DNA of 64,000 bases from an uncultured bacterium (GCA_903839725.1 CAIMDG010000001.1:235315-299314); one strand, 5' to 3'. Counted from the stretch's first letter, positions 5,918 to 64,000 are shown. A program made the numbers and translations. The notes: a model not told the origin generated them from the letters alone.

Positions 5918-5923
5918 GTAAAA

Positions 5924-6184
5924 TTAGAGTGTATTCAAGAAACCGAGACTTATCAAAGAAAATATAACGAGAAGAGCACCTTCGATTTTTCGTATTCTAA
6001 AATCACTTTTTGCATTGGCACCTTTGTAACTTGGCTTTTTATTCAAGGTGAGAACGACTCCAAGGGCAAAACTTACGACCAAGAATGTCCACAAACCAAC
6101 ATTGATTACATTACTTGTAGAAATAAGAACGACTGCAAGAATAAGGAAACAAAACTTGAGAGTGATTTCAATTGGTCTCATCAT
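5924..6184 (-). CDS. small membrane protein (2-3 TM) between the two transketolase subunit genes
   Basis: Hydrophobic ORF of 86 aa, tightly packed between 4922..5917 and 6210..7082. Confidence 0.4.
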   Translation of the reverse strand: MMRPIEITLKFCFLILAVVLISTSNVINVGLWTFLVVSFALGVVLTLNKKPSYKGANAKSDFRIRKIEGALLVIFSLISLGFLNTL

Positions 6185-6209
6185 ATATGTAATAAATTTA
6201 TATTAATAA

Positions 6210-7082: not shown

Positions 7083-7111
7083 GTCGGGTATATTATACCA
7101 TGGAAGCGATA

Positions 7112-7209
7112 CAAATCCGCAAATGCATGCGAATGACGCAAATAAGCGCACCAAAATCTAAAATAGAGTGTGATTCATTCGCATTATTCGCATGCATTTG
7201 CGGATTTGC
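7112..7209. promoter_or_regulatory. long inverted repeat (caaatccgcaaatgcatgcgaat ... attcgcatgcatttgcggatttg) upstream of tkt; member of the AATGCGAAT palindrome family
   Basis: 23-bp perfect arms with a ~50-bp spacer, read from the sequence. Related sites at 7913..8001 and 41737..41797. Confidence 0.6.
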
Positions 7210-22539: not shown

Positions 22540-22648
22540 AATAGGGGCACATGTACTTATTTTCTGCACAAGTTTAGAGACATGTACATTACATCGCGTA
22601 CCTCAATGTTTACAAACTTGTGCAGAAAATAAGTACATGTGCCCCTAT
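22540..22648. repeat. hairpin module E1: 36-bp perfect inverted arms around a 38-nt loop
   Basis: aataggggcacatgtacttattttctgcacaagttt - loop - aaacttgtgcagaaaataagtacatgtgcccctatt. Confidence 0.9.
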
Positions 22649-23046
22649 TGGTTTTTGATGTGGTATATGAAAACGCCACCACTTCTGGCAAGTGGCGGCG
22701 TGGTCCAAGGTTGATTCGTCCTCGCGGACGAATTATACATCAGATAGGTTGGGTTTGATTGCCAACCTCGTTTTTGATTGAAACTCAACGTATCAATGTG
22801 CGCCAGGGCACACGCCAGAATCATCCGGAAGTGCTCATGCATGGCCGCCGTGAATTCACGGGGTCTTGCAGAATTCCAACGGAAAGAGTGATACGTTGCA
22901 CCGATGCTCTGGGTAAACCAGAGTGTGCAAGCAGCTCCTACATACAGGAGCGGAAGAACATCAGTTGTGAAGATATTCATACCTAAAAAAAGTCTATAAC
23001 AAGGAGCATGTAATTGCAAGATGATGTAATACATAGCGACTAAGAA
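22649..23046. other. GC-rich (about 50 %) non-coding core with multiple stable hairpins between modules E1 and E2
   Basis: Contains a hairpin plus T-run at about 22746..22778, a ccgtgaattcacgg palindrome and a gctcctacatacaggagc hairpin. ORFs here have no protein-like features. Confidence 0.5.
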
Positions 23047-23156
23047 AACGGGGATGTATACACACTTTTTCTGTACAAGTTTGTAAACATTGAGGTACGC
23101 TGTGTAATGTAAGTGTCTCTAAACTTGTACAGAAAAAGTGTGTATGCACCCCCGTT
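23047..23156. repeat. hairpin module E2, an inverted copy of E1 with the loop conserved and arms diverged compensatorily
   Basis: The E2 loop is the reverse complement of the E1 loop (2-3 mismatches). The arms differ from E1 at many positions but remain self-complementary. Confidence 0.9.
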
Positions 23157-23202
23157 CTCTCCAACGATTCCTCAAAACAAAAATATATCGTATACTGGTG
23201 AT

Positions 23203-23688
23203 ATGAATTTTCAAACATTACTCAACAACCCACTTCTCATTGCCGTTATCATTCTTGCGATTGTAACCGTCATACTACTTGTATTACTTATCCTCATTCA
23301 TCTGAAACTCAAAAGATTTCTCGTCGGCGTTGATGCGCAACATATCGGAGATTCACTCGTAAATGTGTCTTCTGATGTTCGTGAATTGCAAGAATTCAGA
23401 ACTGAGCTCGAAAAGTATCTCACAGAGGTAGAACGTCGACTTAAAAAGAGTATTCAATCAGTGCACACAGTTCGTTTCAATCCATTCAAAGGTACTGGTG
23501 GTGGAGGCAATCAAAGCTTTGCTACCGCGTTTATCAACGAAGAAGGTGATGGTGTTGTTGTATCGAGTCTCTATTCTCGTGATCATGTAAGTGTATTTTC
23601 AAAGCCAGTCAAGAAACATGCTTCTGAATACGAATTGTCAGATGAAGAACGTGAAGTATTGGATGGTGCAAAGAAAGGATTGAAATAA
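23203..23688 (+). CDS. membrane protein, DUF4446-like
   Basis: N-terminal TM helix then VRFNPFKGTGGGGNQSFATAFINEEGDGVVVSSLYSRD, resembling DUF4446. From memory. Confidence 0.45.
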   Translation: MNFQTLLNNPLLIAVIILAIVTVILLVLLILIHLKLKRFLVGVDAQHIGDSLVNVSSDVRELQEFRTELEKYLTEVERRLKKSIQSVHTVRFNPFKGTGGGGNQSFATAFINEEGDGVVVSSLYSRDHVSVFSKPVKKHASEYELSDEEREVLDGAKKGLK

Positions 23689-23756
23689 ATATTATAGATT
23701 TGGCAACAAAAAAGAGGGTACTTAGTTCCCCTCTCGTGTTTCGAGTAACTACTGAA

Positions 23757-24104
23757 TTACGACAATTCTTCAAAAAAATTCGCGAGCAAACTTACTGGTT
23801 TCTGCTTATGTGCATTGCGAGGTATCTTCACGGGCACAGCCGGACATGTGATCGAGCTGGTCATGGGGACTTTCTGCAGAACACCAAATTCATTCTTGAG
23901 CCGATTAATGAATGAGCGAATCTTGTAGATGTCGCGCTCTTCGGTATCCTTGAATTCAATCGAAGGTTGCTTGCTAAACGAGTATCCAAAACTGATATTG
24001 ACGCGCTGCGACAAGCGAAACGATCGACGAAGGACCATTTCCCGGATTTGTTCAGCAATCTGTTTACCACGACGTTGACCGAAGCCGACGACAAGAATCT
24101 TCAT
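23757..24104 (-). CDS. hypothetical protein
   Basis: ORF of 115 aa starting MKILVVGFG. No assignable domain. Confidence 0.3.
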   Translation of the reverse strand: MKILVVGFGQRRGKQIAEQIREMVLRRSFRLSQRVNISFGYSFSKQPSIEFKDTEERDIYKIRSFINRLKNEFGVLQKVPMTSSITCPAVPVKIPRNAHKQKPVSLLANFFEELS

Positions 24105-26355: not shown

Positions 26356-26877
26356 ATGCGAAAAAGAAGTTGGACAAAAGAAGATCTCGTAAAAGCGGTA
26401 ATAGAATCGAAGAGCGTGAGACAGACTATATCAAGGCTAAACCTTGTTGAAGCTGGTGGCAATTATAATCAAGTTAAGAAGTATATTAAATTATACAACT
26501 TAGATACATCACATTTTACTGGCTACACATGGAACAAAGGTATGTGTGGACGATATATGCCACTTATACCACTATCAAACATCTTAATAAGACATAGTGA
26601 ATTTCAAAGTTATAAACTTAAGAAACGTCTCTTCATCGAAAAAATCAAAACTCCCCAATGTGAAAACTGCGGTTGGGCAAAGAAATCAGAAGATGGTAGA
26701 ATCCCTCTTGAGCTTGACCATATCAATGGAGACAAGTACGATAATCGTATTGAGAACCTACGGGTTCTTTGTCCAAATTGTCATAGCTTACAACCTACAC
26801 ATCGAGGTAGAAATAAACACAAACGCCCGGGTGGTGAAATTGGTAAACACGTAACACTTAAAATGTTATCTTCGTAA
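26356..26877 (+). CDS. HNH endonuclease, homing-endonuclease-like freestanding type
   Basis: N-terminal SWTKEDLVKAV...GGNYNQVKKYI...DTSHF module and C-terminal HNH (LELDHINGDKYDNRIENLRVLCPNCH). The last ~53 nt of the ORF overlap tRNA-Leu. Confidence 0.8.
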   Translation: MRKRSWTKEDLVKAVIESKSVRQTISRLNLVEAGGNYNQVKKYIKLYNLDTSHFTGYTWNKGMCGRYMPLIPLSNILIRHSEFQSYKLKKRLFIEKIKTPQCENCGWAKKSEDGRIPLELDHINGDKYDNRIENLRVLCPNCHSLQPTHRGRNKHKRPGGEIGKHVTLKMLSS

Positions 26878-26908
26878 GGAGTTGTGGGTTCGATTCCCAC
26901 CCCGGGCA
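26825..26908 (+). tRNA. tRNA-Leu (TAA), type II with long variable arm
   Basis: Acceptor gcccggg/cccgggc, anticodon loop ctTAAaa, long variable arm, T-arm gtggg-ttcgatt-cccac. Confidence 0.8.
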
Positions 26909-26976
26909 CTCTGAATTTCATATATATTGTGAATATCTTTATAAACATTCCATTCTAAATTTGATATAATTTTTAT

Positions 26977-27651: not shown

Positions 27652-28215
27652 ATGTTTACACTCAAAGTCGGTGACTGGGTTATTCCCACAGCAGGACTCT
27701 TACCTATCGATTCGGAACAGCAACACAGGACGAAAGAACGGCGTAGTATCACTACGACGGAGCCGCTGCAGATCGAGTCAATTCCAGTCACGAAAAAAGA
27801 CGAAGAACAGTTAAAATTTCAGGGCATCAGAGGTCAGTTTTTGGCTTGCTTTTTCCAGCCGGTAAACAAGACTGCGATCACTATGCAGGGTAATGATCAA
27901 GGAAAACAAAATATCCTGTCACTTATCAAGGCGCATGGGGTGCAGAAAAAATCACCGACAATAGAAGTTGAGGTTGTGGTGAATGGCCGAACCTTTACAT
28001 TGTTAGGTTCGAAAGAACAAATAGTGGACATGGGCCTGACGTCGGTTGTATTGCTCTCCCCTGAAAGCACTCCAGATAATTTTATTTCTGCGACAACGGC
28101 CCCCAAGGAATTCGAGCTGGCGTTAGGTAAACTCGTCACTGGCGGCACTAAATTTTATACAGTGCTCCAGTCATCATGGGCTTTACCGGCGTTCATATGG
28201 GAGATTTGCCCATAA
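27652..28215 (+). CDS. hypothetical protein
   Basis: 187-aa ORF in a locally GC-elevated segment. No recognised domain. Confidence 0.4.
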   Translation: MFTLKVGDWVIPTAGLLPIDSEQQHRTKERRSITTTEPLQIESIPVTKKDEEQLKFQGIRGQFLACFFQPVNKTAITMQGNDQGKQNILSLIKAHGVQKKSPTIEVEVVVNGRTFTLLGSKEQIVDMGLTSVVLLSPESTPDNFISATTAPKEFELALGKLVTGGTKFYTVLQSSWALPAFIWEICP

Positions 28216-32853: not shown

Positions 32854-34728
32854 TTAGCCGATGCGATGCTTATCTTCAGTATACATTCTTGCAAATGCAC
32901 CTTGTTTCGCCATAAGCTCGGCAGGGGTTCCTTGCTCAACGATTTCGCCCTTACCCATCATGATGACTTTGTCACAACGTTCAGCGCGTGAGACGTGGTG
33001 CGTGATCATGACGACGGTTACATTCTTGAGCTTGAATACCTGGTCAATGACTTTCTTTGCCGAATCAGGATCCAAATTGGAGTCCGGTTCATCGAGAATC
33101 AAGATCGGTGTCCGACGATAGTGCACACGCGCCAATGCCAATCGCTTTCGTTCTCCGCCGGAGAATTCAAGACCATCGAACTGCGTGCCGATTTGAGCGT
33201 CATATCCCTTCGGGTTGTCACTCACCACTTCGTCAAAATGCGCGAAGCGTGCAGAGTTCGTAACGTCTTCAGGATTGATCGTTTGACCAAGTCTCGACGA
33301 AGCGATTTCACCAGCTATCGAACGTTCAAGCACGGTAAAGTCTTGGGTCAAAGCGGAGATGACTTCATTCCAATCTCTTGGTTTGATATTCCGCAGATTG
33401 ATTCCGTTTGCAGTTATCGAGCCAGACGATGCATCGTAATATCTACACAACAATGCTTGAAGCGTAGACTTACCATTACCACTTCCTCCGACGATGGCCA
33501 CCTTACTTCCCGGCTCGATCGTAAAGCTTACATCCTTGATCGCCAGTGTGTCTGACGTTGGATACGCGAAGCTCACATGGTCGAATACGATACGAGGGAT
33601 GCCTTCTAGACCAGGACGTCCAATGAATGGCGGAATGACCGGCGACTCCGTGACAATACTTGATTTCATGCCAAAGAATTCCTTCTCGATCATGATGACA
33701 CCTTTGGCATTGTTCCACTGGTCAGCCACCATACCGACGATTGATTCGAGGCTGACCTGGAATGTGCGCGCGGCAGCAATAATAATCGTAAGCGTTCCGA
33801 TTCCAAGATCATACGCAGCAGTGGACCATATTGCATAGACGATAACTCCACCAAGCCCAAGAAACATCACCAAATTGGCGAGTAGTTTTTTCTTGAGACA
33901 CGTCATACGAATATGATCGTATTCATCGAGAATACCACCGACATTGATGTCGACTTCCTTGCGAAGAGCCGGCATCTGGTTGAACATGAGCGCCTGCATG
34001 AATGCAGTTGGCTGATTGTATGCTCTTTCGAGAACATATCGTCTCTTGTGTTTGGGCACAAAACCACGGAACAAGTCCCACCACATCTGCACCAAGCGGA
34101 ATTCGATGAATACCGCCGGCAATGTTGCGATAACGAGCACCAGTGCAAAAAGCGGCTGATACACAACGAGAGTTGCACCGAAAAGTGCAAATGATATGAG
34201 TGTCGTGAAGAGGTCGAACATCTGGTCCGAGTATACAATTCTCGTTTGCCATGATGAAGGAAGCTCTTCAATATTCTTCGTTAGATCATCAAACTCTTTG
34301 CTTTTGAACCGAGCAATGTCGAGGGTCGAACGATGCTCGTTGAGTTCACGACGATTGAAGAAATGTAACTCAATCTTCCACAAATTGGCGTAATACCATT
34401 TGATGCGACCGAGCACAACACCAACCAAGATAACAGTAAGCATAAATACACTTGGCCACAGGAGATCACTGTGAATGAAATCCGTGAATGAGTGTACAGA
34501 CTGATGAGATGCTGCGACACGCTGGGCAGCGTTGATGATCCAACCAGTTGCCTGAACAACCAAATACACCACGATGGTGTTAAAAAATGAAACGCCAATC
34601 AGGACCTTGGTAGCTTTTTTACTGTTCTTCCAACAAAACGCGAACGAATACCTTGTCGCCAAGAGTATCGTCGCTATGGTTTCTCGTATCTTATTCATAA
34701 GAATGAAGGGTTTATTGTTAAACTGCAA
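32854..34728 (-). CDS. ABC exporter, fused permease-ATPase (MsbA-like)
   Basis: Six-TM N-terminal domain. C-terminal NBD with GGSGNGKST Walker A, LSGGERKR signature and ILILDEPDS Walker B. Confidence 0.9.
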   Translation of the reverse strand: MQFNNKPFILMNKIRETIATILLATRYSFAFCWKNSKKATKVLIGVSFFNTIVVYLVVQATGWIINAAQRVAASHQSVHSFTDFIHSDLLWPSVFMLTVILVGVVLGRIKWYYANLWKIELHFFNRRELNEHRSTLDIARFKSKEFDDLTKNIEELPSSWQTRIVYSDQMFDLFTTLISFALFGATLVVYQPLFALVLVIATLPAVFIEFRLVQMWWDLFRGFVPKHKRRYVLERAYNQPTAFMQALMFNQMPALRKEVDINVGGILDEYDHIRMTCLKKKLLANLVMFLGLGGVIVYAIWSTAAYDLGIGTLTIIIAAARTFQVSLESIVGMVADQWNNAKGVIMIEKEFFGMKSSIVTESPVIPPFIGRPGLEGIPRIVFDHVSFAYPTSDTLAIKDVSFTIEPGSKVAIVGGSGNGKSTLQALLCRYYDASSGSITANGINLRNIKPRDWNEVISALTQDFTVLERSIAGEIASSRLGQTINPEDVTNSARFAHFDEVVSDNPKGYDAQIGTQFDGLEFSGGERKRLALARVHYRRTPILILDEPDSNLDPDSAKKVIDQVFKLKNVTVVMITHHVSRAERCDKVIMMGKGEIVEQGTPAELMAKQGAFARMYTEDKHRIG

Positions 34729-34952
34729 TAAATTCTATAATATACAATATCAGGAAACTAGACTTGATGTCAAACTAGTTTTATAGTGTAATTCACAATT
34801 TCTTGCATAAAATGACACATTCTGGTATAGTATATCTACTGACGAGAAATGACCTTCCCAAAGGCCATTTTTTGTTTTCTAAATTTTAAGACAAACTTTT
34901 TATATGCAATGATGGCGCCCTGTTGTTACAAGGCGCCATTCGCGATTGAGCT

Positions 34953-35414
34953 TTAATTAAAATATCTATCAAAGATCAGCTCACAGATCTTGATTTCCGA
35001 CTCGTTCTGCGGAATGTGAACATAGTTGGGGATGTAAACATATTCCCCTTCGAGCCATATCGGAACACTTGGAACGATTTGGGAAACTTCCCGACGAAGT
35101 GTTTCCGGTTCACAGAGCACCGGATTGATGTGTGATCCACGGAGCAGTGCGATACGGTTCACGATGTTCGCACTCTCTAGCTCAGCAGTGAACCTGATGA
35201 CCGTAAGTCTCTTGGTCATCTCCTCTATCGTTTGCTCGAGGATAGGCTCGGGCGAATCCGGATACAGCAAGCGAATCTGTTCTGGAGAGATCCAGATATT
35301 CACGTTAGTGTTCCGAGAAACCCGATCAAGGCGAAGCCTTTGAACTCTGTCGATAATGTGTGCACTTCCCGCGATTTTGGCGGAAGGCTTTATCACAATG
35401 TATTGTTTTTTCAT
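34953..35414 (-). CDS. hypothetical protein
   Basis: ORF. Start set at MKKQYIVIKPS. Confidence 0.35.
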   Translation of the reverse strand: MKKQYIVIKPSAKIAGSAHIIDRVQRLRLDRVSRNTNVNIWISPEQIRLLYPDSPEPILEQTIEEMTKRLTVIRFTAELESANIVNRIALLRGSHINPVLCEPETLRREVSQIVPSVPIWLEGEYVYIPNYVHIPQNESEIKICELIFDRYFN

Positions 35415-35539
35415 GTAGTATTCAGTTGTAACCGAGCGAACGGCGCTCAGTAGGTGCAGTTTGTTTGTGAGTATAATAACATTATTTTTATAGATAGTCA
35501 ATCCTCTTTACACTCCTATTCTATCTAGTATTATTATGA

Positions 35540-46364: not shown

Positions 46365-48125
46365 ATGAAACTTAAGAAAGTCAACATATCGGGTTTCCGA
46401 TCAATAAAGAAAACTGAGATACTTCTTGTTGAAGAGAAGATGACTATTCTAATCGGTGCAAACGATCACGGAAAGACTAATATTTTGAGTGCAATTGAAT
46501 TTTTGAATGAGGAAAAAACTTTTGTTCCAGATGATATTAACTGGGATCTTGAGACTGATCCAGATATAACAATAGAATGGCATTTTACACCATCGAGCGC
46601 TGCACTTGAGAAACTTGCATCACTTGAACATCAAACTGTTGAAGGTGAAGAGAGGCCGCCAATGATTGAAACCAATAAAGAGAATGAAATAGTTTATTAC
46701 CGAAAACATAGCGATAATAAAATAAAGGTTAAAAGTGTTCCTGGTATAATCCCTGTAGCAAAAGAGGTAGATGTTTTACAGTTGAGACCACGTATTGAAT
46801 TATTTGCGCCTCCAACTGCGAACTTGAGAGATCAAGTAAACCTAGGTCAACTTGAAACTTTGGAATTTGAATTTATGCAAGGAATATTTAGACTTGCTGG
46901 TATTTGGGATGTAAGGAAGGATATTTTTGTACAAAATGATAAGACTTCAAAATTGCTTGATGAGGCGTCATTGAAACTTACTGAAGTCCTAAATACTAAA
47001 TGGAATCAAGGCAGAGATCTAAAATGGAAAATAGAGCACACAGGAACAAACGGTGATCATATAGCCATAAAGATTCAAGATCCCGCTATTGGGACAAGGT
47101 ATACACGACCCTCTCTTAGGTCGTCTGGTTTTCGTACCTATTTCTTGCTTTCAATGATTACTTATGCTCGAACTGAAAATAAGGTTGCAGATTCGTATGT
47201 GTATCTCTTTGATGAACCAGGCACATATTTGCATCCTCATGCTCAATTGGATCTACAACGTAGCTTTGAATCAATATCTGGAAAGACGCAGATTATATAT
47301 ACAACACATTCACTTTTTCTTATCAATAAAAACTATCCTGGTAGAAATCGTGTAATAAGCAAAGCGAAAGACGGCACTAAAATTGACCAAAAGCCTTTTG
47401 TAAAAAATTGGAAATCTGTCCGAGAGTCACTTGGTATACTACTTAGTAATAATTTTCTTATTGCTGAAAAAACTCTTCTTGTTGAAGGCCCTTCTGATGT
47501 GATTTATATTCTTCATGCAATTAAGAAACTTAAAGCGGCGGATGAAATAGACATCGATCTCAATGATCTAAGCGTTGTTGATGCTGGGACATCTGAAAAC
47601 TATCTTGCTATGGCAAAGTTGATGGTTGCTGAAGGTCGTGAGGTTGTCGCGCTTTTGGATGGTGATAAGAAAGGTGAAGAAATAGAGAAACAATTGAAAA
47701 AAGTTTGCGAAAAAGAAATTAAGGATGGGAAACTCCAGATTCTCAAACTCCCTAAGGATAAATCAATAGAAGATATATTCACTGATGTGTCTGTTACCAA
47801 AAAAGCAATTGAGGCACTTGCTACTGATCTTATTGGAATGGGTATTCGTAAGTTGAAAAACGGAATTAACCTTGCTGGCGAAGTTGCCAAAATCGCGCCA
47901 ACTACTACTTTAACACTCGGAAGAATCATAGATGAAAAAACAACTTCAATGTTTGATCCAGAAGAGAAGCTTTCAAAACTTTCTATCGCACTAAAATATG
48001 AGGATATTATGTCGGACTCGGTTGCACTACCAGATAATGCTAAAGAGCAGATAGAAAAAATTAAAGACAAACTTTCTCTTAAAAATGAGAGAAATGATGA
48101 AAAATCTATTTTTGAAGAGGTCTAA
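46365..48125 (+). CDS. OLD-family nuclease: ABC-type ATPase plus C-terminal TOPRIM (class 1 OLD / GajA / fused PARIS-like architecture)
   Basis: Walker A GANDHGKTN, Walker B YLFDEPGTYLHP. TOPRIM region with LLVEGPSDVIYI and LLDGDKKGEE. 586 aa. Confidence 0.75.
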   Translation: MKLKKVNISGFRSIKKTEILLVEEKMTILIGANDHGKTNILSAIEFLNEEKTFVPDDINWDLETDPDITIEWHFTPSSAALEKLASLEHQTVEGEERPPMIETNKENEIVYYRKHSDNKIKVKSVPGIIPVAKEVDVLQLRPRIELFAPPTANLRDQVNLGQLETLEFEFMQGIFRLAGIWDVRKDIFVQNDKTSKLLDEASLKLTEVLNTKWNQGRDLKWKIEHTGTNGDHIAIKIQDPAIGTRYTRPSLRSSGFRTYFLLSMITYARTENKVADSYVYLFDEPGTYLHPHAQLDLQRSFESISGKTQIIYTTHSLFLINKNYPGRNRVISKAKDGTKIDQKPFVKNWKSVRESLGILLSNNFLIAEKTLLVEGPSDVIYILHAIKKLKAADEIDIDLNDLSVVDAGTSENYLAMAKLMVAEGREVVALLDGDKKGEEIEKQLKKVCEKEIKDGKLQILKLPKDKSIEDIFTDVSVTKKAIEALATDLIGMGIRKLKNGINLAGEVAKIAPTTTLTLGRIIDEKTTSMFDPEEKLSKLSIALKYEDIMSDSVALPDNAKEQIEKIKDKLSLKNERNDEKSIFEEV

Positions 48126-54495: not shown

Positions 54496-55416
54496 ATGCA
54501 CCTAAACATCTTTGCGGGTAAAGGTGGTGTTGGAAAAACCAACTGCGCTGTCTCACTTGCGCTTCACCTCTCCGGCTCAATGGATATCAAAACGGCTGTC
54601 ATCGACTATGATGGCGGTCACAGTGTTGCGAATACACTCGGCACAACCACACTTCTCTCGAGAAATATGGTGTGTCCGATGAAAAAGAACTTCGCGATTG
54701 CAATCGTTGAAAATACAGATTTTGTTGGAATCGCTGAGGCAATTACCAAAAAGTGGACCTTGAAAGAATACTTGGCACAGTTCCCTGGCGAGTTCGGCCT
54801 CATTCCACTTACGGACATGGTGAACGCTTTCTTTGGTGTTCTAACCGATACTGTGACATTGCAAAAGTTTGCGACTCTTATAACGCTTCTTGCTCAGCTT
54901 GAGCAGCGAGGCTATGAACGAGTAATCATTGACGTTGAACCGACTGCGGGAATGGAGCGTTTGCTCCTCAATGTGCAATCGACTGCACGAAGCCTGACAA
55001 ATCTGCAGAATCAAGGCATCATCTCTCTGTCAATGATTGGCGCGAAATGGCCCCACATTGCTGGTTACCTCAAAGGTGATTACATCAAACATGCCGATAA
55101 ACACGCGGCAAATATCCAGCATGTGGCGACATTACTTACAAACGCCAAATATATGATCGTTTCGACCCCTGAAGCAAGTCCGATCAACCAAACATTCGAA
55201 GTGCGCCGAATCATCGAAAAGTTTGGGGGCAAGGTTCATGGTTACGTGGTTAACAATCTACGCGGGGAGGCTCATGAAGCTTCGAATATTTCCCGCCTCG
55301 ATGCAGAAGGTCTTCCCGTTGTGAAGATTGGACGGCAAGCTGGACTTCATTCCGGCAAGGAACGCACTCCAATTCTTCTGAATATGGGCGCACTCATCGC
55401 TCGAGAGTTAGTCTAG
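54496..55416 (+). CDS. ArsA/GET3-family P-loop ATPase
   Basis: Deviant Walker A AGKGGVGKTN at the N-terminus. Confidence 0.5.
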   Translation: MHLNIFAGKGGVGKTNCAVSLALHLSGSMDIKTAVIDYDGGHSVANTLGTTTLLSRNMVCPMKKNFAIAIVENTDFVGIAEAITKKWTLKEYLAQFPGEFGLIPLTDMVNAFFGVLTDTVTLQKFATLITLLAQLEQRGYERVIIDVEPTAGMERLLLNVQSTARSLTNLQNQGIISLSMIGAKWPHIAGYLKGDYIKHADKHAANIQHVATLLTNAKYMIVSTPEASPINQTFEVRRIIEKFGGKVHGYVVNNLRGEAHEASNISRLDAEGLPVVKIGRQAGLHSGKERTPILLNMGALIARELV

Positions 55417-55507: not shown

Positions 55508-56140
55508 ATGCAAGAACTCATCGAAGTATACAAACTAGACGGCACATTCATCGGAACTCAAGATAGAGACGATTTTTATACTGAAGCCAAAAAAGAATTT
55601 GCTCAAAGTGGTGCTATTTCTAAAAAAATAAAAACTATCAGAGTACTCCTGATGAATTCACGTGGAAGAATATACCTGCAAAAAAGAAGTGAATTAAAAA
55701 AGGAGAACTCAGGTTTATATGACAAAACTGTTGGCGGTCACGTTATTTTCAACAACACCCCAGAATTAACTGTGGTTAAGGAATGCGCTGAAGAATTGGG
55801 TTTTCCAGCAACAATTATCAATAATAATGAATTTGAACAGGCCGTTAAGTCGATTGATCTCAAAATAGTTGGGATATTAAAGAAAATTGATCACATTGAT
55901 AATTTTGAATCAACAAGACTTTTGAATGATGGACAGAGTTTTGTTCAACCCTATATTACTGATATTTATATCGGATATTACGATGGTGCTATACGATTTG
56001 CTGACGGAGAAAGTTCTGGAGTTGAGACATTTTCGATTAGTCAACTCAAGAATAATATAGCGAATCAACCTGGTAAATTTACTGAGGATTTGAAGTATAT
56101 GGTGGAAAAATATTCAGATGTACTCGTACCATTAATTTAA
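55508..56140 (+). CDS. NUDIX hydrolase
   Basis: Nudix box GGHVIFNNTPELTVVKECAEELG. Confidence 0.6.
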   Translation: MQELIEVYKLDGTFIGTQDRDDFYTEAKKEFAQSGAISKKIKTIRVLLMNSRGRIYLQKRSELKKENSGLYDKTVGGHVIFNNTPELTVVKECAEELGFPATIINNNEFEQAVKSIDLKIVGILKKIDHIDNFESTRLLNDGQSFVQPYITDIYIGYYDGAIRFADGESSGVETFSISQLKNNIANQPGKFTEDLKYMVEKYSDVLVPLI

Positions 56141-56147
56141 TAACCCC

Positions 56148-56573
56148 ATGCTTTACAGTGATTTATTGAAGACCCCACGATCCTGCCCATTTTGTGAATT
56201 CACACATAACAGAATTATCGATCACAATGATGACGTGTTCATGACCTACGCACTTGCTCCATACCACAAACATCATTTACTCGTTGTTCCCTATCGTCAC
56301 ATAGATGATTTCGAGAATTTAAGTCAGACAGAATTAGTATCAATCAATACACTATTACATAAAGGTATTAATTTGCTGAAAAAACTCAACTATCAGGATT
56401 ACACCATCGTTGTTCGTAATGGCAAGAAAACAGGCAAAACGATTGAGCACTTGCACTATCACATTATCCCTGTTGATGTCATCGGTGACCTCAATCACGT
56501 CGGTGAAGAAAGAAAAGTATTGTCTGAAGCTGAAATAGAAGAAATTCTTCGTGATTTTGATATAAAGCAATAA
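56148..56573 (+). CDS. HIT family protein
   Basis: Histidine triad HLHYHIIP. Confidence 0.7.
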   Translation: MLYSDLLKTPRSCPFCEFTHNRIIDHNDDVFMTYALAPYHKHHLLVVPYRHIDDFENLSQTELVSINTLLHKGINLLKKLNYQDYTIVVRNGKKTGKTIEHLHYHIIPVDVIGDLNHVGEERKVLSEAEIEEILRDFDIKQ

Positions 56574-56767
56574 CAATCTTGAGAGAAAAATCTAAGGGAC
56601 ATATTACGCAATGTCATATAGACACTTCATCATTGCTGTGGTAATTTCGATATAGAAAGCTTTTTACATATCGAGCATCACTGTTCGTGGCTTTCTACGC
56701 GGAAAAATACACAACGCATATGAAAACACCAAACCAACGTAAAAAACGGGTCTACTCGGAGGCGGAT

Positions 56768-57763
56768 ATGTCTCCTGTCAGTCCCCTTGCAAAGAAACAA
56801 CTCGCAGTGTTGGGCTTCGGCTCGCAAGGCCACGCCCATGCCCTCAACCTCAAGGATTCAGGTCACAATGTGATCATCGGCCTCTATCCGGGCAGCAAAT
56901 CCATCCAGGTGGCGGAGAGCAAAGGTTTTACTGTGCTTCCGGTTGAATCAGCGGTTTGTCAAGCCGACGTCATTTTCGTCGCACTGCCCGACACGAAGCA
57001 AGCCCGCGTGTTCGTGGAAAACATTTTGCCTCATCTGACGAAGGGCAAAACACTTTTGTTTTCTCACGGCTTCTCGATTCACTTCAAGACAATCATTCCG
57101 CCGAAGGGCGTCAATATTGTCATGGTGGCACCGAAAGGCCCGGGCCACGTCGTCCGCAGCCAATATGTGGAAGGCAAAGGAGTGCCGAGTCTCATTGCGG
57201 TTTACCAAGGCGGCACCAAAGCGAAGAACATCGCACTTGGATGGGCCCACGGCATCGGCGCCACTCGCGCAGGTGTTTTGGAAACCTCGTTCAAAGAGGA
57301 AACCGAAACTGATTTATTCGGCGAACAAACCGTCCTGTGCGGCGGCCTGAGTTCCCTCGTCATGGCCGGCTTCGAAACGCTGGTTGAAGCGGGATATTCT
57401 CCCGAAATGGCCTACTTCGAATGTCTGCATGAAGTGAAACTGATCGCCGACCTCATGAACGAATCCGGCATCGCTGGTATGCGGTTCTCAATTTCCGAAA
57501 CCGCGAAGTGGGGAGATGTATCCGTCGGCCCCAAGATCATCAATGCCGGCGTGAAGAAACGCATGGCGGTTGCTCTCAAGAACATCCAATCGGGCAAGTT
57601 TGCTCGTGACTGGATCAAGGAATACAACGGTGGCTACAAACGCTACGACGCATTACTTGCACGCGACGCAGGACACCTGATTGAGAAGACCGGCGCCCGT
57701 CTTCGCGGACTCATGCCGTGGATGAAAAAGCGTGCGATCAAGGGCGCCCAAGCGTCGTATTGA
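56768..57763 (+). CDS. ilvC: ketol-acid reductoisomerase, class I
   Basis: [14 protein letters not shown] Rossmann motif and KARI C-terminal knotted domain. GC about 55 %, far above the window average. Start chosen at MSPVSP; the ORF extends upstream to 56687. Confidence 0.85.
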
Positions 57764-57875
57764 TCACTACGGTTCCAAGATCGAATATGCAATTCCGCAA
57801 GGAATTGCATATTTTTATTTGTATTAAAAAAGCCGATCCTATTTCTAGAATCGGCTTCGAGTCATCTGATCTTGA

Positions 57876-58772
57876 TCAGTATGACGAGCTGTGTTCAGGT
57901 TCACTGGTGAACCCACTTCGATCTGAACCCGCCGGCGGTTCCGCAGGCGATTCAACTTCCGTTGACGACGGAGGTTGATTTGTTCCCCCATCGTTGACGA
58001 ACGGATCAACGATAACAGGTGGAGGTGCAACACCGACGTCAGCAGTAGCCGTAGCAGCTTCGGTGCTCGGAGGCGCGCTGTGCTGCGCCGCAACACCGAC
58101 AGTGTCGAGGCTTGCGTCTGCACCGCCACCGCCAGACCGACCTTCTCCGGGATGAAATCCTGGGACGTCTTGGTAGGCGTGATGATTGCTGCTGGACATG
58201 GAGTCATAGACCCATAACCAGAACCAGGGGTTAAACCCTGAGCTCGAGGTGTGATTACTCCAAGGAGTTGGAGTCGGAGCAATGAATACCTCCTTACTTG
58301 CCCTCACTGCCACGAGCGGTGCAACCGCACGAGCGAGCATTCCCCACTTTCTTTCTTCGATGTCCAACGACACGATTTTGTCGCGGCCGATGTAGTTGAG
58401 CAAATCAACCATGTCACCATTGCTGATGCGAATGCTCCCATTCGTGGGAAGCAAGTTGTCATCATCGTCCGTTTCCCCGGCATGAATGGCCAGGATGTTA
58501 CGGTCGTCGGGCGTATTCGAGACGCGGGTGGCTTCACCACTGACCGCTTCGAAGACCAGAACAGCCGGGCCATAGGCAGCAAAGAGCTCCTCATTGGTTG
58601 CCTGCTTGTTCAGGTTGATTTGTTTCAGTTTATAGGAGCCGAGCTTGGGTTCGTGCCCTTCAAAATCCGAGTCGCATGTGCCGACAGCGGTTATTGGGGC
58701 GGAGCCATCTCCAATGCTCAGTGTTCCTGCATACTGCCGATTACTGGGCAGTTGTAGTATTAGGGTTTTCAT
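57876..58772 (-). CDS. L,D-transpeptidase-like (YkuD fold) protein with Ser at the catalytic Cys position, Pro/Ser/Thr-rich C-terminal tail
   Basis: IHAGETDDDDNLLPTNGSIRISNGDMVDL aligns to the YkuD IHGT...GCIRM motif with C->S. Confidence 0.45.
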   Translation of the reverse strand: MKTLILQLPSNRQYAGTLSIGDGSAPITAVGTCDSDFEGHEPKLGSYKLKQINLNKQATNEELFAAYGPAVLVFEAVSGEATRVSNTPDDRNILAIHAGETDDDDNLLPTNGSIRISNGDMVDLLNYIGRDKIVSLDIEERKWGMLARAVAPLVAVRASKEVFIAPTPTPWSNHTSSSGFNPWFWLWVYDSMSSSNHHAYQDVPGFHPGEGRSGGGGADASLDTVGVAAQHSAPPSTEAATATADVGVAPPPVIVDPFVNDGGTNQPPSSTEVESPAEPPAGSDRSGFTSEPEHSSSY

Positions 58773-61041
58773 AATCTAGGATTTTCTTTTGGTTCACTGC
58801 AGTTGTTGTGACGCTCTTCCACATACGGGAGAGCTTTGAAACAAGACTTTCCAGGAAGCTTTCACTCCTGAGAAGTTTGAAGTATGTTTGCACCATGCAA
58901 TCCATACCAAATGATTGCTCGATATGAGCTCGACCATTCTGCCCGAGCTCACGTGCCAAGTCGCGGTCGATGAGGACTCTAACAATGGCTTCGGCAAGCA
59001 TGTTCGGTGATTCGTTTTCCAGGAGCAGACCAGTTTCACCATGAATGATCTGCTCGCGAGTTCCACCATCATCGTTTGCAATGCACGGTAGTCCTGCTGA
59101 GAGAGCCTCAAGCAGAGCATTCGGGCACCCTTGATGTTTTCCGAGAACAACGAAGACGTCGAATTCGGGAAGCTGTTGTACCGTATCGAATGAAGGGCCA
59201 TGAAAGAAGATCCGGCGTGCCGGCGCTTCCTTCGAGACTTTCTCCACCGATGCGGCATACGTTTCGAATCGCGGTTCTGCCGCGCCGAACACGTGAAGCT
59301 CCACATCAGGTATGCGCTCACGCACGATCTTCATAGCCTCGAGAATTTCGAGGAAAAATTTCGTGGGAGCTATGCGCCCGTTTACCACAACGCGGGGATT
59401 GCCCCGAATCGTATAATCCATTTTCGGCGCCGAATGAACCGGAATGCCGTTGGGGATGACCACTGTCTTGCGCGCGCAGGCTATCGGGCTTTCGCCGTCA
59501 TATTTAAGGACCATATTGTCCAGCCGAGCGTGGAATCTATTCTCGTCAAAGCAAATCATACGCTGGAATTCAGCCACGATCTGCAATTCTTCGAACGAAG
59601 ACCTGCCTGGGCTAACGTCCACAAAACGAACGGACGTGAACTCAAGCGATTTCATCACGAGGAGCTTTACCTTCGGATCAAGGTTCCAGAAGCACACGGT
59701 GCCGATCTGGTCGTTGGATATCTTCTGAACCAGTGCCTCGGCATGGTCGAATGGATCACGAGTTGCCGCCGTCCTCCGCACAATCACTCCGGAACCCGAA
59801 AGTTCCTTGAAGAAATGTGAGGCAGTGGAGTTTCCCGTAACCGCTACTTCGAGCCGTAACTTTTTATTGAGGCGCGTAACCAGATTAACGAGTGAGCGTT
59901 GTGCTCCGCCCGAATTCAGGTTTGCTGTCACAAACAAGACTTTGCCAGTCGTGAGGACCGGCCGTGCCAAGCTTGCGAGCGTCCAGAGACGATACGAAGG
60001 AAAGTTAGACCACGACGGCGCCGGAAACACAGACGACAGGGATCTTGCGATCTCCGTAGCCCACACTTCTGCAGACGCTTTCGGATCCATCAATGTCAAA
60101 CCTTCGTGACCAATCTCACCTTGTCCGCCAACTTTGCTCGCCACTACCGGTAGGCGCTGCATGAGCGCTTCCAAGGTAGCGACACTGAGACCTTCATAGT
60201 GGCTCGTGTTCAGAAACAAATCGAAGACTGAGAGGCATTGCGAGGCGTCGGGAATGAACCCGGGCATCGCCACGCGACTACGCAGTCCGAGCCGGTCAAT
60301 TTCCGCAATGAGTGCTTCCCATGAAGAACGTCCATCGCGACCGATTGGTCCGCCCACAATAACCAGATACGTATCCTTCATTCCCTGTAGTGCGTGAAGC
60401 ACGTTGAGGGCGAACGGATAGTTCTTTTGTGGTTTGACCGCACCGATCATGCCAATGACTGTTGCATCTTGGGGAATATTCCATGCCTTGCGGAACCGCT
60501 CCCGATTGCCAGGAACAGAACGAAGACGAGGAATGTGGCGAATAACCGAAACAGGAAGAACAGATCCGCATGCGCGGAGGTCTGCCTGACAAGCTTCGGA
60601 TACAGTGATCGCATAAGGTGAACTTTCGAGGCGTGAAGCCTCTTCGATCCACCCATCACGAGCATTTTGGAGCACGGGGACGATAGTCGCCCCATGAGCT
60701 GACAATGCATCGCGTTCATCTTTTTTCAGCAGGTGGCAGAGGCAAACAGAGCTACTGCTTGCCGCAAGCTTCTTGCCGAGTGATGTAAGCTTTGCACGAA
60801 TATCTGTTCCATGAAGTCGAGTGACTTCGATGAAGGATGGCACGCGCCATTCCTTTTCTTGATCTCGAAGGACGATGATGTGAACGTTCCAGCCGAGTGG
60901 ATGGATGCGGATAGCCCAATCAAGGACCATCTGCTCAGCACCACCGATCGCCAACGTGGCTATTGCCACAGTAAGCTGACGAGAAGCAGAAACAGCAAGT
61001 AATGGCTGCTCTGCTTGGGTATTTGCAATATGCAGTTTCAT
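58741..61041 (-). CDS. tandem double GT4 (GT-B fold) glycosyltransferase
   Basis: Two group-1 glycosyltransferase C-terminal motifs (...EGLSVATLEALMQRLPVVAS... and ...QGCPNALLEALSAGLPCIAND...). GC-rich. Confidence 0.75.
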   Translation of the reverse strand: MKLHIANTQAEQPLLAVSASRQLTVAIATLAIGGAEQMVLDWAIRIHPLGWNVHIIVLRDQEKEWRVPSFIEVTRLHGTDIRAKLTSLGKKLAASSSSVCLCHLLKKDERDALSAHGATIVPVLQNARDGWIEEASRLESSPYAITVSEACQADLRACGSVLPVSVIRHIPRLRSVPGNRERFRKAWNIPQDATVIGMIGAVKPQKNYPFALNVLHALQGMKDTYLVIVGGPIGRDGRSSWEALIAEIDRLGLRSRVAMPGFIPDASQCLSVFDLFLNTSHYEGLSVATLEALMQRLPVVASKVGGQGEIGHEGLTLMDPKASAEVWATEIARSLSSVFPAPSWSNFPSYRLWTLASLARPVLTTGKVLFVTANLNSGGAQRSLVNLVTRLNKKLRLEVAVTGNSTASHFFKELSGSGVIVRRTAATRDPFDHAEALVQKISNDQIGTVCFWNLDPKVKLLVMKSLEFTSVRFVDVSPGRSSFEELQIVAEFQRMICFDENRFHARLDNMVLKYDGESPIACARKTVVIPNGIPVHSAPKMDYTIRGNPRVVVNGRIAPTKFFLEILEAMKIVRERIPDVELHVFGAAEPRFETYAASVEKVSKEAPARRIFFHGPSFDTVQQLPEFDVFVVLGKHQGCPNALLEALSAGLPCIANDDGGTREQIIHGETGLLLENESPNMLAEAIVRVLIDRDLARELGQNGRAHIEQSFGMDCMVQTYFKLLRSESFLESLVSKLSRMWKSVTTTAVNQKKILDYENPNTTTAQ

Positions 61042-61208
61042 AAATCCTATGGGTTTTTGGGTTTCAAAGAGTCTGCCCGTAATTTGAGCATATTATAGCA
61101 CTAATGTCAACACTTGTACTACCTATAAAAAATGGTGGTTGAGCCACACCATACACATTCTTTTGGATAAAAATTATTCAATAAAAGTGGTACTATACTG
61201 ATACAAAT

Positions 61209-61904
61209 ATGAATATAAAAATCCTCTCATGGAATATATGGTGTGACTGTCATTTCGAGGCTGTTTCGGCCTTTCTCAGGGCATCACAAGCAGATATTAT
61301 CGGACTCCAAGAAGTCTCATTGATCGACCCTGAGCGTGACGTTGTTTCACTACTCAAGAATTTGGGATATGAATGCGTAACTGGACCTGCAGCTGAGTTT
61401 ACTGACAATAATAATCGTCATCATGTACTCAATACTGCCCTATTCAGCAAGTTCCCTATCATAGGATCGAAGATCCACCCTTTGAGAGCTGGCAAGAGAC
61501 CTTCAATCGTAGAAGCTCGTATACAAGTTGGTTCCAAAGAACTCGCCGTCTTTTCAGTACATCTTAAACATACGCACCAACAATTTGATGAGATACAAAA
61601 TGAACAAGTCAAAACTATTATGGGATTATTACCTCCGAAACAAGGCATCATCATGGGAGACTTCAATGCAATTCCAGACAGTACAAGCCTGAAGACTCTC
61701 ACTGAGAACTATGTACATACTGACCCAACATTTTCTCCTACATGGAGTATGTACCCTGAAGGATGCCCTGTTTGTAAACCCAATAAATTAGATACTCGCC
61801 TAGATTATATTTTAGTTAGTCCAGATATTGCGTTCACTTCTCCAGAAGTTGGAGCATCAGATGGTTCAGATCATTTGCCGATTTCTATATCAATCAAAAT
61901 ATAA
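61209..61904 (+). CDS. endonuclease/exonuclease/phosphatase (EEP) family protein
   Basis: LSWNIW ... IIGLQEV and C-terminal SDHLP. Paralog of 53044..53784. Confidence 0.7.
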   Translation: MNIKILSWNIWCDCHFEAVSAFLRASQADIIGLQEVSLIDPERDVVSLLKNLGYECVTGPAAEFTDNNNRHHVLNTALFSKFPIIGSKIHPLRAGKRPSIVEARIQVGSKELAVFSVHLKHTHQQFDEIQNEQVKTIMGLLPPKQGIIMGDFNAIPDSTSLKTLTENYVHTDPTFSPTWSMYPEGCPVCKPNKLDTRLDYILVSPDIAFTSPEVGASDGSDHLPISISIKI

Positions 61905-61922
61905 TTCAATACGCTCTAGTTA

Positions 61923-62987
61923 CTATTCTGTTGCTTTACAAATTAATTGTCTTACACACATTGTAGCGTAACTACCAGTAGGTAAAAGGAAAGTTAACTT
62001 AATCTTCTTCTTGCCTTTATTCATTTCATCATCTGCAATATCCAATACATATACTGCCGTAGTTGTAATAGCGCATCTTGTATTATCTTTTTTTGAAATT
62101 TTTTGATCATTCTCCAATCTATGTCCTGCACATGAGACTATATTTGGTGCTTTGAATATATTCCCATAAGGAATAAAAAGGTCACCTACGTTTTCAAAGT
62201 AATCAATACTACCCTTACAGTTTTCTGCGAGTACTTTTGAGACTTCTCTATTCCATAGGTAACTATCATATGATGACAGGAAGAAATTCACTTTTTTGGG
62301 ATTAATTGTGAGGAAAAAATCTCTAAAATCATCTTGCGTACTTTTCTTTGATGGAATAGTGTTTTCTGACAATCCTTTATTTCCAGAAAGTTTAAATTGT
62401 TTATATGCCTCTTTCCAGTCTTGATCAATTATAGCTTTCCCTATCAAATGGGTATTGTATGGACCCCCAGGCATACCGAATCTCTGAGAATCATAATAAT
62501 TTATAAAACTTACAAATTTATTATTTTTACAAAACTTCAAGACCTGTTCCGCAATTGTCTCATGTACATTTCTAACAACCAAATTAAATGAATTAGCATG
62601 TAGCATTTTTTCAGCTACAGGTGTATCCCCATAACCCATGATACGCTCAATCTTTATATATGAAGAAGGTGTTAAATTTTTTTTGTTAAATAAGGCGACT
62701 TGTGAACTATTCAAAACTTTTTTAAGTGACAAAATTTGCGCAGTAATTCCATCCTCATCTTTCAAGCCTTCTACATTTATATCTTCATTTTTTAATTTAA
62801 AAAAATCTCTAATTATATCTTGAGCATCAAAAGTCGAGAATCCACTCTTTTGAATCCATATATATGTATACTTGCCAGTCTTAGAAAAACGTGGGAGCAG
62901 AGGCACCTCAGTCACTTCAAAATCTTCATTTATAGTCTTTAGTCTATAATCTAGATTTTTTGCATTTTTTGATTTGTGTTGTCTCAT
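61923..62987 (-). CDS. truD: tRNA pseudouridine synthase TruD/Pus7 family
   Basis: NYYDSQRFG matches the TruD NYFGxQRFG catalytic motif. N-terminal EDFEVTEVP. Confidence 0.7.
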   Translation of the reverse strand: MRQHKSKNAKNLDYRLKTINEDFEVTEVPLLPRFSKTGKYTYIWIQKSGFSTFDAQDIIRDFFKLKNEDINVEGLKDEDGITAQILSLKKVLNSSQVALFNKKNLTPSSYIKIERIMGYGDTPVAEKMLHANSFNLVVRNVHETIAEQVLKFCKNNKFVSFINYYDSQRFGMPGGPYNTHLIGKAIIDQDWKEAYKQFKLSGNKGLSENTIPSKKSTQDDFRDFFLTINPKKVNFFLSSYDSYLWNREVSKVLAENCKGSIDYFENVGDLFIPYGNIFKAPNIVSCAGHRLENDQKISKKDNTRCAITTTAVYVLDIADDEMNKGKKKIKLTFLLPTGSYATMCVRQLICKATE

Positions 62988-63158
62988 AAGATTTCTAAAT
63001 GAAATCTAGCAAATGTTATAAATATTACCACACATATTCTAAATGGCAATAGGATACAAGACTATTTACATATAACACTTTTTATGTCCAATTACGCAAA
63101 TTTAAATACGTCTAAATCACACAAAAAATATATATTACTTACGAAGTAAAAGTTCACC

Positions 63159-63773
63159 CTATACTCCGTATTTCTTCTTAAAATCCCCCGCTACATATTC
63201 ATCGAACTCAAACACCCCATTCGCCTCTTTGTTAAGTATCGCTATATATTCAAAAAAACCTTTTTTATCATAAACAGTAAGGTCGAGTGATTCGCATATC
63301 TTTGTCAATTCCTCAGTAATTTTCTGTGCATCTTCGTTACCATGAGCCATCTTCTCAGCTTCAAAATAATAACTATGATTGGGTACTTCTACCAAAGCAA
63401 ACTCTACGTCTTTATATTCATAGACACGACTCTTTCTGTGAGCTAGTACACCTTTTCCAAAACCAAGATGACCAAATATCTCCACAAGAGTATCGAACTC
63501 TCCTGGTTTTCCGAGAACAGAAAGCTCTTTTCTTTGTTCCGATCCACCCCACTCTCCAATTTTAACAATAATTTCAGGTATTCCATTTGTCACACGAAGA
63601 CGTATATCTTTTTTTCTACTCTCAATTCCCCCAGGCAAAAAAGTTGAATAGTCAATCAGAATCCTATCTTTCTTCTCTTTAACTTTCCCATTTTTAGTAA
63701 AAAATGTAATAAGAGATTCGTATTGAGCCTTCGAAAGAGGACCGCGAATTTCAATTTCGATATTTTTTTGCAT
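63159..63773 (-). CDS. CYTH-domain protein (class IV adenylyl cyclase / triphosphatase fold)
   Basis: N-terminal IEIEIRG (ExExK-type) motif. Start set at MQKNIEIEIRG. Confidence 0.55.
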   Translation of the reverse strand: MQKNIEIEIRGPLSKAQYESLITFFTKNGKVKEKKDRILIDYSTFLPGGIESRKKDIRLRVTNGIPEIIVKIGEWGGSEQRKELSVLGKPGEFDTLVEIFGHLGFGKGVLAHRKSRVYEYKDVEFALVEVPNHSYYFEAEKMAHGNEDAQKITEELTKICESLDLTVYDKKGFFEYIAILNKEANGVFEFDEYVAGDFKKKYGV

Positions 63774-63860
63774 GAGAATAGTATAGTACAAATTTATATA
63801 AATAGCATATACAGAAAAAGGGCAAGCCGTAGGCTTGCCCTTTAGTGTATTTCGTCCTAC

Positions 63861-64000
63861 TTCTTGGGACAAAATCCTTTGACGAAAACCTTGCCACCAA
63901 TAATTTTATGAATTGGCCGATTGAATATCTGACCCGCTCGACAGAAAGGTGTTTTGCATTTGGGACAATTTAGATCCTTCTCAGTATGATCAGCAGTTAT
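63861..64000 (-). CDS. partial CDS (C-terminal 47 aa, ...NCPKCKTPFCRAGQIFNRPIHKIIGGKVFVKGFCPKK*), continues beyond the window
   Basis: Open frame to the window edge with a stop at 63858..63860. Cys-rich. Confidence 0.3.

Follow-up and report, generated by a model that had tools for sequence, protein, structure and literature searches.

Classical genomic islands are recognised by a sharp compositional deviation, a foreign phylogenetic affinity and presence/absence variation among relatives, and they are linked to tRNA genes, borne by integrases and flanked by direct repeats. The compositional island considered here, in DNA from an uncultured bacterium (GCA_903839725.1, CAIMDG010000001.1:235315-299314; the window, that is, the whole 64-kb stretch analysed), shares the first three of these properties but lacks the others. 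It lies between a HIT-family gene and an EEP (endonuclease/exonuclease/phosphatase) gene, and carries a lone ilvC gene for a ketol-acid reductoisomerase (KARI), a gene for a 298-amino-acid (aa) protein and a gene for a double family 4 glycosyltransferase (GT4). It is probably an old, fixed mosaic of two separately acquired horizontal cassettes, resident in a reduced genome of approximately 40% GC. No tRNA adjoins the island (the nearest is at 42.8 kb), no integrase or transposase was found in or beside it (the nearest recombinase is at 44.9-46.3 kb), and no flanking repeat pair was found in a repeat search. Moreover, the variation observed at this site is an internal deletion, unlike the excision of classical genomic islands. 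The features are listed below, where L009 is a 1.5-kb contig and L013 a diverged relative of the locus.

56617-56719, plus strand: promoter-like region and 5' leader of ilvC, aligning with the DNA upstream of the L009 ilvC
56720-57763, plus strand: ilvC, class I ketol-acid reductoisomerase, 347 aa (KARI_N and KARI_C domains, NCBIfam equivalogs)
57783-57823, plus strand: intrinsic terminator 3' of ilvC, a 14-bp stem followed by a T-run, with a perfect 13-nucleotide inverted repeat
57876-58772, minus strand: 298-aa protein, with a YkuD-fold N-terminal domain (residues 1-160) according to the predicted structure, and a C-terminal tail conserved in the family alignment
57928-61137, no strand: segment deleted in L013 according to the alignment (most of the 298-aa gene, and the GT4 gene)
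58741-61041, minus strand: double GT4 glycosyltransferase, 766 aa (each Pfam model matches in two stretches)
61042-61137, minus strand: upstream (promoter) region of the GT4 operon and right edge of the island, where GC is already at the host level; similarity to L013 restarts at 61138

The GC content is 53.0% over 56720-61041 and 40.0% in the remainder of the window, a deviation of z = 6.7 from 524 windows of the same length elsewhere, the highest of which reaches 45.6%. In 1-kb bins, values of 52.6-53.3% are found across 57001-61000, compared with 31-49% in all other bins of the window. An earlier reading made from the sequence alone (the sequence-only reading) had described an island of "about 55 %" GC with a sharp step up at ilvC and down after the GT4 gene; the island and its coordinates are real, at a slightly lower GC content, and both steps are seen in 200-nucleotide (nt) bins, the GC fraction going from 0.34 at 56.6 kb to 0.52 at 56.8 kb, with the rise taking some 100 nt around 56.7 kb, and from 0.52 at 60.9 kb to 0.35 at 61.1 kb, with the fall placed at 61.0-61.1 kb. 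The tetranucleotide and codon-usage comparisons that it had proposed point the same way. Tetranucleotide distance from the window mean is greatest at 57001-61000 (0.038, with at most 0.022 wherever no part of the island is included), and all three genes are GC-rich as described, with a GC content at third codon positions (GC3) of 0.63 for ilvC, 0.56 for the 298-aa gene and 0.53 for the GT4 gene, against 0.35 ± 0.08 (maximum 0.52) for 56 other open reading frames (ORFs). Thus GC, GC3 and tetranucleotides are all atypical and the KARI has its nearest named relatives in another phylum, as is characteristic of horizontally acquired DNA; for the GT4 gene and its partner, the indications of transfer are limited to composition and comparison with other genomes. 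Raised GC3 (0.49-0.52, mean 0.35) is also present in genes at 32854-35501, 54496-55416, 22645-24104 and 27652-28215, among them those for an ABC ATPase of 624 aa, for the 182-aa protein next to it and for an ArsA-like ATPase three genes to the left of the island; these may be older, more ameliorated acquisitions.

An abrupt step of 13 GC points at both ends, in metagenomic material, would also be produced by an assembly chimera in which a low-GC contig had been fused with a high-GC fragment from a different organism, an alternative that the sequence-only reading had raised. The identical GT4 protein is present on 17 contigs, with the same arrangement at all the places shown. Window positions 56001-61600, both junctions included, are covered at 99.98-100% identity by five contigs from different samples and sources (L001-L005; Logan, and ENA assemblies in two naming styles). 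In addition, L013 has the same ilvC joined to the same EEP gene, and the junctions fall between genes, where a promoter-like region and terminators are found. Because five independent contigs carry both junctions and the diverged L013 shares the ilvC part, a chimera, which we regard as having a negligible probability, is excluded, and the island is real.

The closest described relatives of the ilvC product are the class I IlvC proteins of Verrucomicrobiota (Pedosphaerales/Limisphaerales type), with which it shares a two-domain architecture, a length class, an identity of about 75-77%, the "GLY-x-GSKS" cofactor loop, all invariant motifs and scores above the NCBIfam equivalog cut-offs. The product scores 486.2 bits against NF004017 (cut-off 336) and 411.5 bits against TIGR00465 (cut-off 226), and matches Pfam PF07991 (3.4e-65) and PF01450 (2.5e-58). 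The motifs that we take from KARI structures to be catalytic and metal-binding are all invariant in an alignment with eight homologues (including H116, K139, D198, E202, E234, E238 and S259), and the enzyme is intact. The longest ORF opens at a GTG at 56687, whereas the gene callers and the L009 homologue use the ATG at 56720.

In contrast to the Verrucomicrobiota proteins, the window KARI has a 7-residue N-terminal extension that is found otherwise only in L009, its gene stands alone with its own promoter whereas the Verrucomicrobiota-type gene adjoins ilvN (immediately upstream of ilvC on a donor-type contig), and it occurs in a reduced genome of 40% GC, on a branch longer than any inside Verrucomicrobiota. 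The closest KARI outside its own 90% cluster is P0002, encoded on L009, with 81% aa identity, and all the remaining top matches are at 75-78%; those with names belong to Pedosphaera, Limisphaerales, Chthoniobacter and other Verrucomicrobia, and one to Methylomirabilota. These named KARIs are 83-96% identical to one another, 78-81% identical to the L009 KARI and 75-76% identical to the window KARI, which is approximately 24% diverged from its nearest sampled donors. The identities suggest that the window and L009 KARIs, the two copies in a Candidate Phyla Radiation (CPR) context, form a longer branch joined to the Verrucomicrobiota-type cluster.

The regulatory DNA of ilvC appears to have travelled with it. 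About 100 nt upstream are common to the window and L009, and this leader is better conserved between the two than the coding DNA. A putative promoter can be recognised by eye (TAGACA in one and TTGACA in the other, 17 nt, then TAATTT and TAGTTT, respectively), and the leader contains a hairpin of -16.8 kcal/mol with a modest z of -2.2. A search of the leader against Rfam gave no match. The leader segment at 56645-56705 (plus strand; L009 40-100) is nearly invariant although the proteins are 81% identical, and has an AGAAAGC...GCUUUCU hairpin, two sequences being compared. The terminator downstream of ilvC is conserved in L013. L009 has the leader and an ilvC related to that of the window, with a different downstream gene; since gene and leader are shared in another context, ilvC would move, or have been rearranged, as a self-contained unit. 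The GC3 of the L009 gene is 0.72, compared with 0.63 in the window.

The genome that received this gene appears to be CPR/Patescibacteria-like, and probably belongs to Saccharibacteria. Outside the island, the window carries genes for enzymes of glycolysis and the pentose-phosphate pathway, for DnaE, UvrB, a short IF-2, ThrRS and a release factor, for a serine recombinase and an OLD-family nuclease, and for restriction-modification. As a rule, CPR bacteria have no amino-acid biosynthesis. As the sequence-only reading had stated, there are no other branched-chain amino-acid genes nearby: no ilv, leu or pan gene was found among window ORFs of 150 aa or more, nor in the next 10 kb or so to the right. 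Literature searches on Saccharibacteria, Patescibacteria or CPR in connection with KARI or ilvC yielded no relevant result.

The history of the island can be read from L013, which was found by scanning JGI metagenomes with the flanking EEP protein. The EEP proteins of the two loci are 88% identical, and a 237-aa protein (63159-63872, minus strand) is 84% identical. Positions 1-700 of L013 correspond to window positions 57226-57927 at 92.6% nt identity, and include the 3' half of ilvC, its terminator and, from the 298-aa gene, roughly the last 50 nt; positions 723-1491 then correspond to 61138-61905 at 88.3%. The 50-nt remnant indicates that the L013 lineage once had the GT4 operon and then deleted 57928-61137, and the remnant and the shared ilvC (99.4% aa and 92.6% nt identity) together indicate that the island is older than the split between the two lineages. 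An empty-site test found no genuinely empty site and gave only L013 as an informative locus, the other EEP homologues (38-60% identity) showing no match to the genes that flank the island in the window. In a second presence/absence difference adjoining the island, the gene for the TruD pseudouridine synthase (61923-62987, minus strand; region 61906-63158), which has a host-like GC3 of 0.24, is absent from L013, where the EEP gene is followed directly by that of the 237-aa protein.

Between the window and L013, ilvC has a synonymous divergence (dS) of 0.245 and a nonsynonymous divergence (dN) of 0.0024, giving a dN/dS of 0.0099 over 537 nt, while the dN/dS against L009 is 0.09; for the EEP gene, a host gene, the dS is 0.468 and the dN/dS is 0.11. 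These ratios argue for very strong purifying selection on ilvC, and the L013 deletion argues that the GT4 cassette is dispensable. It has to be considered whether ilvC is a decaying or non-functional passenger, given that the surrounding 74 kb or so hold no other gene of the pathway and that biosynthesis of amino acids is generally missing from CPR genomes. This is very unlikely, because the reading frame is complete, its product exceeds the equivalog cut-offs with the invariant catalytic motifs preserved, the gene has its own conserved promoter/leader and terminator, the dN/dS is 0.01 against L013, and ilvC was kept in L013 where the neighbouring cassette was lost. When the base changes in ilvC are polarised with L009, 15 are from GC to AT and 6 from AT to GC, which fits slow amelioration. 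The sequence-only reading had proposed a recent horizontal acquisition from a high-GC donor. Horizontal acquisition is borne out by the foreign composition, by the Verrucomicrobiota relatives of the KARI and by a comparison of GC in the GT4 pair (see below); a recent date is contradicted by the divergence of the KARI from its nearest sampled donors and by the age of the island, which predates a split with a dS of 0.25-0.47.

The described systems closest to the second half of the island are SdgA/SdgB, which act on Ser-Asp repeats, and GtfA-GtfB, which act on serine-rich repeat adhesins. In these, as here, GT4 enzymes are encoded beside a low-complexity, Ser/Asp-rich acceptor. Two GT-B modules also act together in both cases, fused in the window protein and as separate subunits in GtfA-GtfB. 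The window protein has weak matches to the NCBIfam SdgA and SdgB models, at 66.4 and 41.3 bits, far below the cut-off of 800. The acceptor motif is also different, being P-x-I-x-D-P-F followed by a C-terminal G-T-[SA]-Y; there is no accompanying secretion machinery, and the pair occurs in CPR, Acidobacteriota and Desulfobacterota, not in Firmicutes, and is known here from genes alone. Two stretches of the protein match each of PF00534 (Glycos_transf_1, 158 bits) and PF13692 (Glyco_trans_1_4, 148 bits). Module 1 has E283-x7-E291, conserved in 59/59 and 53/59 homologues, respectively, while module 2 has Q637-x7-E645 (59/59 each), with an invariant Gln in place of the first Glu. The homologues are 726-905 aa long and 48-61% identical, with the two halves about equally conserved, and are labelled Vicinamibacterales, Syntrophobacteraceae, Candidatus Lloydbacteria, Patescibacteria and Saccharibacteria (the last in locus L008).

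The start of the 298-aa gene overlaps the stop of the GT4 gene by 32 nt, and the two genes, both on the minus strand and converging on ilvC, therefore form an operon. A protein with a Tyr-terminated tail is encoded beside the double GT4 in all ten contexts compared (the window, L008, L010, L011, L012, L041, L042, L043, L044 and L045), two genes away in one of them, and the genes overlap in four of the ten (by 32, 17, 26 and 4 nt). In many cases the tail module shows, in this order, a Gly-rich stretch, (L)P-[LIV]-I-[VA]-D-P-F, an acidic/Ser/Pro linker of 30-60 residues and a terminal Tyr, usually in G-T-[SA]-Y. In contrast, the N-terminal part is variable: a YkuD-like domain in the window, L008 and L045, a zinc ribbon in L011, L012 and L044, a TPM-type or other membrane protein in L041, L042 and L043, and absent in L010 (73 aa). 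It follows from the variable N-terminal parts and the shared tail that the tail is the constant partner of the GT4. No Pfam or NCBIfam model recognises the tail, and limited literature searches for a system combining a C-terminal Tyr, a glycosyltransferase and TPM found nothing relevant. Several observations concern the TPM proteins and the tail. In L008 (8193-9796 and 13232-13714), genes for TPM-domain and LemA proteins lie immediately upstream of the GT4 gene, and a second Tyr-terminated protein, of 160 aa, follows the first. The tail in L042 (5814-7289) is carried on a 491-aa TPM-domain protein. The TPM protein of L008 has a Gly-rich C-terminus that is similar to the tail's Gly-rich motif.

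A further possibility is that the GT4/298-aa cassette is native to the CPR lineage and owes its GC excess to Gly/Ala/Pro-rich products, so that only ilvC is foreign. The pair is indeed present in loci labelled Saccharibacteria (L008), Lloydbacteria (L042) and Patescibacteria (L043), and it stands 2-5 GC points above its flanks in all five CPR or CPR-like loci (these three, L011 and L045). Nevertheless, the GC content of the pair departs from that of the flanking DNA by 0-5 points in the nine other genomes compared and exceeds it by 13 points in the window, which supports a foreign origin of the window copy, and the excess is also seen at third codon positions (0.53-0.56 vs 0.35). The cassette is moreover deleted in the nearest relative, L013, and the best GT4 match is 61% identical. 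A native cassette is thus unlikely, and on the alternative of a foreign one the donor of the pair would have had roughly 50-60% GC.

The sequence-only reading had called the 298-aa product an L,D-transpeptidase (LDT)-like protein; its account of the gene content is confirmed, with the likeness to LDT holding at the level of the fold only. A word-indexed homologue search with this protein retrieved only the protein itself, and an exhaustive search of representatives gave 47 relatives, with a Tyr end in 31/47 and the DPF motif in 28/47. Modelling by AlphaFold2 with a 42-sequence alignment gave a predicted local distance difference test score (pLDDT) above 90 for residues 1-160, compared with 31 for the N-terminal domain from a single sequence, and the model predicts a YkuD beta-sandwich fold. 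The match to Pfam YkuD (PF03734) is 19.1 bits, below the gathering score of 23.4 (E = 0.002). In profile searches of the PDB, a two-sequence profile found nothing relevant and the family profile only 4lzh at E = 1.2, while hhalign against a YkuD sequence aligned the catalytic motif with a probability of 6.9%, which is a lead only.

The YkuD-family enzymes to which this domain can be compared (Csd6, Pgp2, Tlde1a and B. subtilis YkuD) use a nucleophilic Cys. Their catalytic motif, taken as H-x(n)-[ST]-x-G-C-[IV]-R, is incomplete in the 298-aa protein, in which His97 is present and the position of the nucleophile is Ser113 (TNGSIR); among 30 motif-matched relatives this position is G in 15, S in 9, T in 3, N in 2 and C in 1. 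The protein differs further from these enzymes in having no evident signal peptide (by eye), in scoring below the Pfam gathering cut-off, in its fusion to a Tyr-terminated acidic tail and in sharing an operon with a cytoplasmic-type GT4. It is therefore predicted to be LDT-like in fold and not a canonical Cys transpeptidase. Its tail comprises NPWFWLWVY, GRSGGGGA, VIVDPF, an acidic/Pro/Ser linker and the terminal Tyr. Two relatives of the YkuD-like domain, P0297 and P0298 (L047), have C-terminal LysM repeats in place of the Tyr tail and a TNGS[VL]R catalytic site resembling that of the window protein, which connects the domain lacking the Cys with the binding of peptidoglycan; P0297 lies on a 1.5-kb contig.

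The three genes are contiguous, with no host gene between them, and are similar in GC (54% and 53%; GC3 as given above), which is compatible with a single recent transfer of one block from one high-GC donor. We consider this improbable. The affinities of the two halves differ, the KARI relatives being Verrucomicrobiota and the relatives of the GT4 pair being scattered in CPR, Acidobacteriota and Desulfobacterota at 50-61% identity, and ilvC is in none of the GT4 loci examined. The ilvC unit has another neighbour in L009 and occurs without the GT4 operon in L009 and L013. The cassettes are convergent, each with its own terminator, and neither the divergence of the KARI nor the age of the island agrees with a recent event. 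The single donor implied by the sequence-only reading is accordingly rejected.

The explanation that we favour, two separately acquired cassettes, would be as follows. The first cassette is a self-contained ilvC unit of Verrucomicrobiota-type ancestry, comprising promoter/leader, class I KARI and terminator. An intact enzyme under very strong purifying selection presumably does something useful despite having no pathway partner nearby, and the lone KARI may be a reductase/isomerase that works by itself with NAD(P)H, its substrate being scavenged from a host cell or the environment. Candidate substrates are 2-keto or 2-aceto-2-hydroxy acids, namely acetolactate, or 2-ketopantoate as for PanE; IlvC can replace PanE in enterobacteria and Corynebacterium. 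The sequence-only reading had likewise put forward pantothenate/CoA metabolism as a possible role. The second cassette would be a translationally coupled operon for the double GT4, followed by a catalytically disabled YkuD-fold protein with a Tyr-terminated acidic tail. The GT4 may dock on P-x-I-x-D-P-F and glycosylate the Ser/Thr/Tyr-rich tail in the cytoplasm, by analogy with SdgA/SdgB or GtfA-GtfB. Both cassettes would have been present before the two sampled lineages split, one of which later deleted the second cassette and kept ilvC, with the GC content of the island slowly decaying toward the host value.

Several points weigh against this explanation. The "lone" status of the KARI covers about 74 kb, whereas the longest contig of the genome is 358 kb, and ilvBN, ilvD, ilvE and panBC could lie elsewhere. 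The assignment of the host is drawn from its reduced gene content and from the label of L008, "uncultured Candidatus Saccharibacteria bacterium", and the ancestry of the KARI from identity ranks and the names of the top matches. The dS of ilvC is half that of the EEP gene, and a later exchange of ilvC between the lineages, instead of strict co-descent, is possible. For the GT4, no specific donor is identifiable, the best match (61%) being unlabelled. The window tail ends in SSSY, unlike the usual G-T-[SA]-Y, and glycosylation of the tail is suggested by gene adjacency alone.

Elsewhere in the window, the region at 42.9-50.7 kb looks like a mobile or defence island. It holds a MamI-type restriction enzyme and methylase, a large serine recombinase and a ParB-methylase, and a LOOT RNA (Rfam RF03000; 48228-48357, plus strand; 68.8 bits vs a gathering score of 46.4) lies just downstream of the OLD-family nuclease gene (46365-48125). 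An HNH-endonuclease ORF (26356-26877, plus strand) is flanked by tRNA-Cys and tRNA-Leu, and runs at its 3' end into the tRNA-Leu gene (26825-26909, plus strand). Transketolase is split in two genes (4922-7154, minus strand), one for the N-terminal 314 aa and one for the pyrimidine-binding and C-terminal 331 aa, within a pentose-phosphate cluster with Rpe and RpiB, and with 6PGD and 6PGL further along.

As a compositional island the locus is of a known kind; it carries a lone, strongly constrained KARI in a reduced genome and an undescribed GT4/Tyr-tail pair. It can be proposed, tentatively and at somewhat less than even odds, that the double GT4 and the Tyr-tail constitute an undescribed two-gene system for protein glycosylation (or for a protein-primed glycan) and that, separately, an epibiotic CPR bacterium has domesticated a Verrucomicrobiota KARI as a stand-alone reductase. 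The GT4/tail system would be widespread in CPR and other phyla, with the fused GT-B pair recognising P-x-I-x-D-P-F and modifying the acidic tail that ends in G-T-[SA]-Y, and the tail would sit on interchangeable "cargo": a dead YkuD fold, a zinc ribbon, a TPM membrane protein or nothing. With its built-in substrate, and a tail for which neither Pfam nor NCBIfam has a model, the pair is a candidate for a new system of protein modification. Bacteria of the CPR/Saccharibacteria type are believed to rely on a host for amino acids. The capture across phyla of one pathway enzyme, held at a dN/dS of 0.01, points to a specific metabolic hand-off, possibly of a scavenged keto-acid, in pantoate synthesis or in redox balancing, and the L013 deletion variant is a natural experiment on which half of the island is selected.

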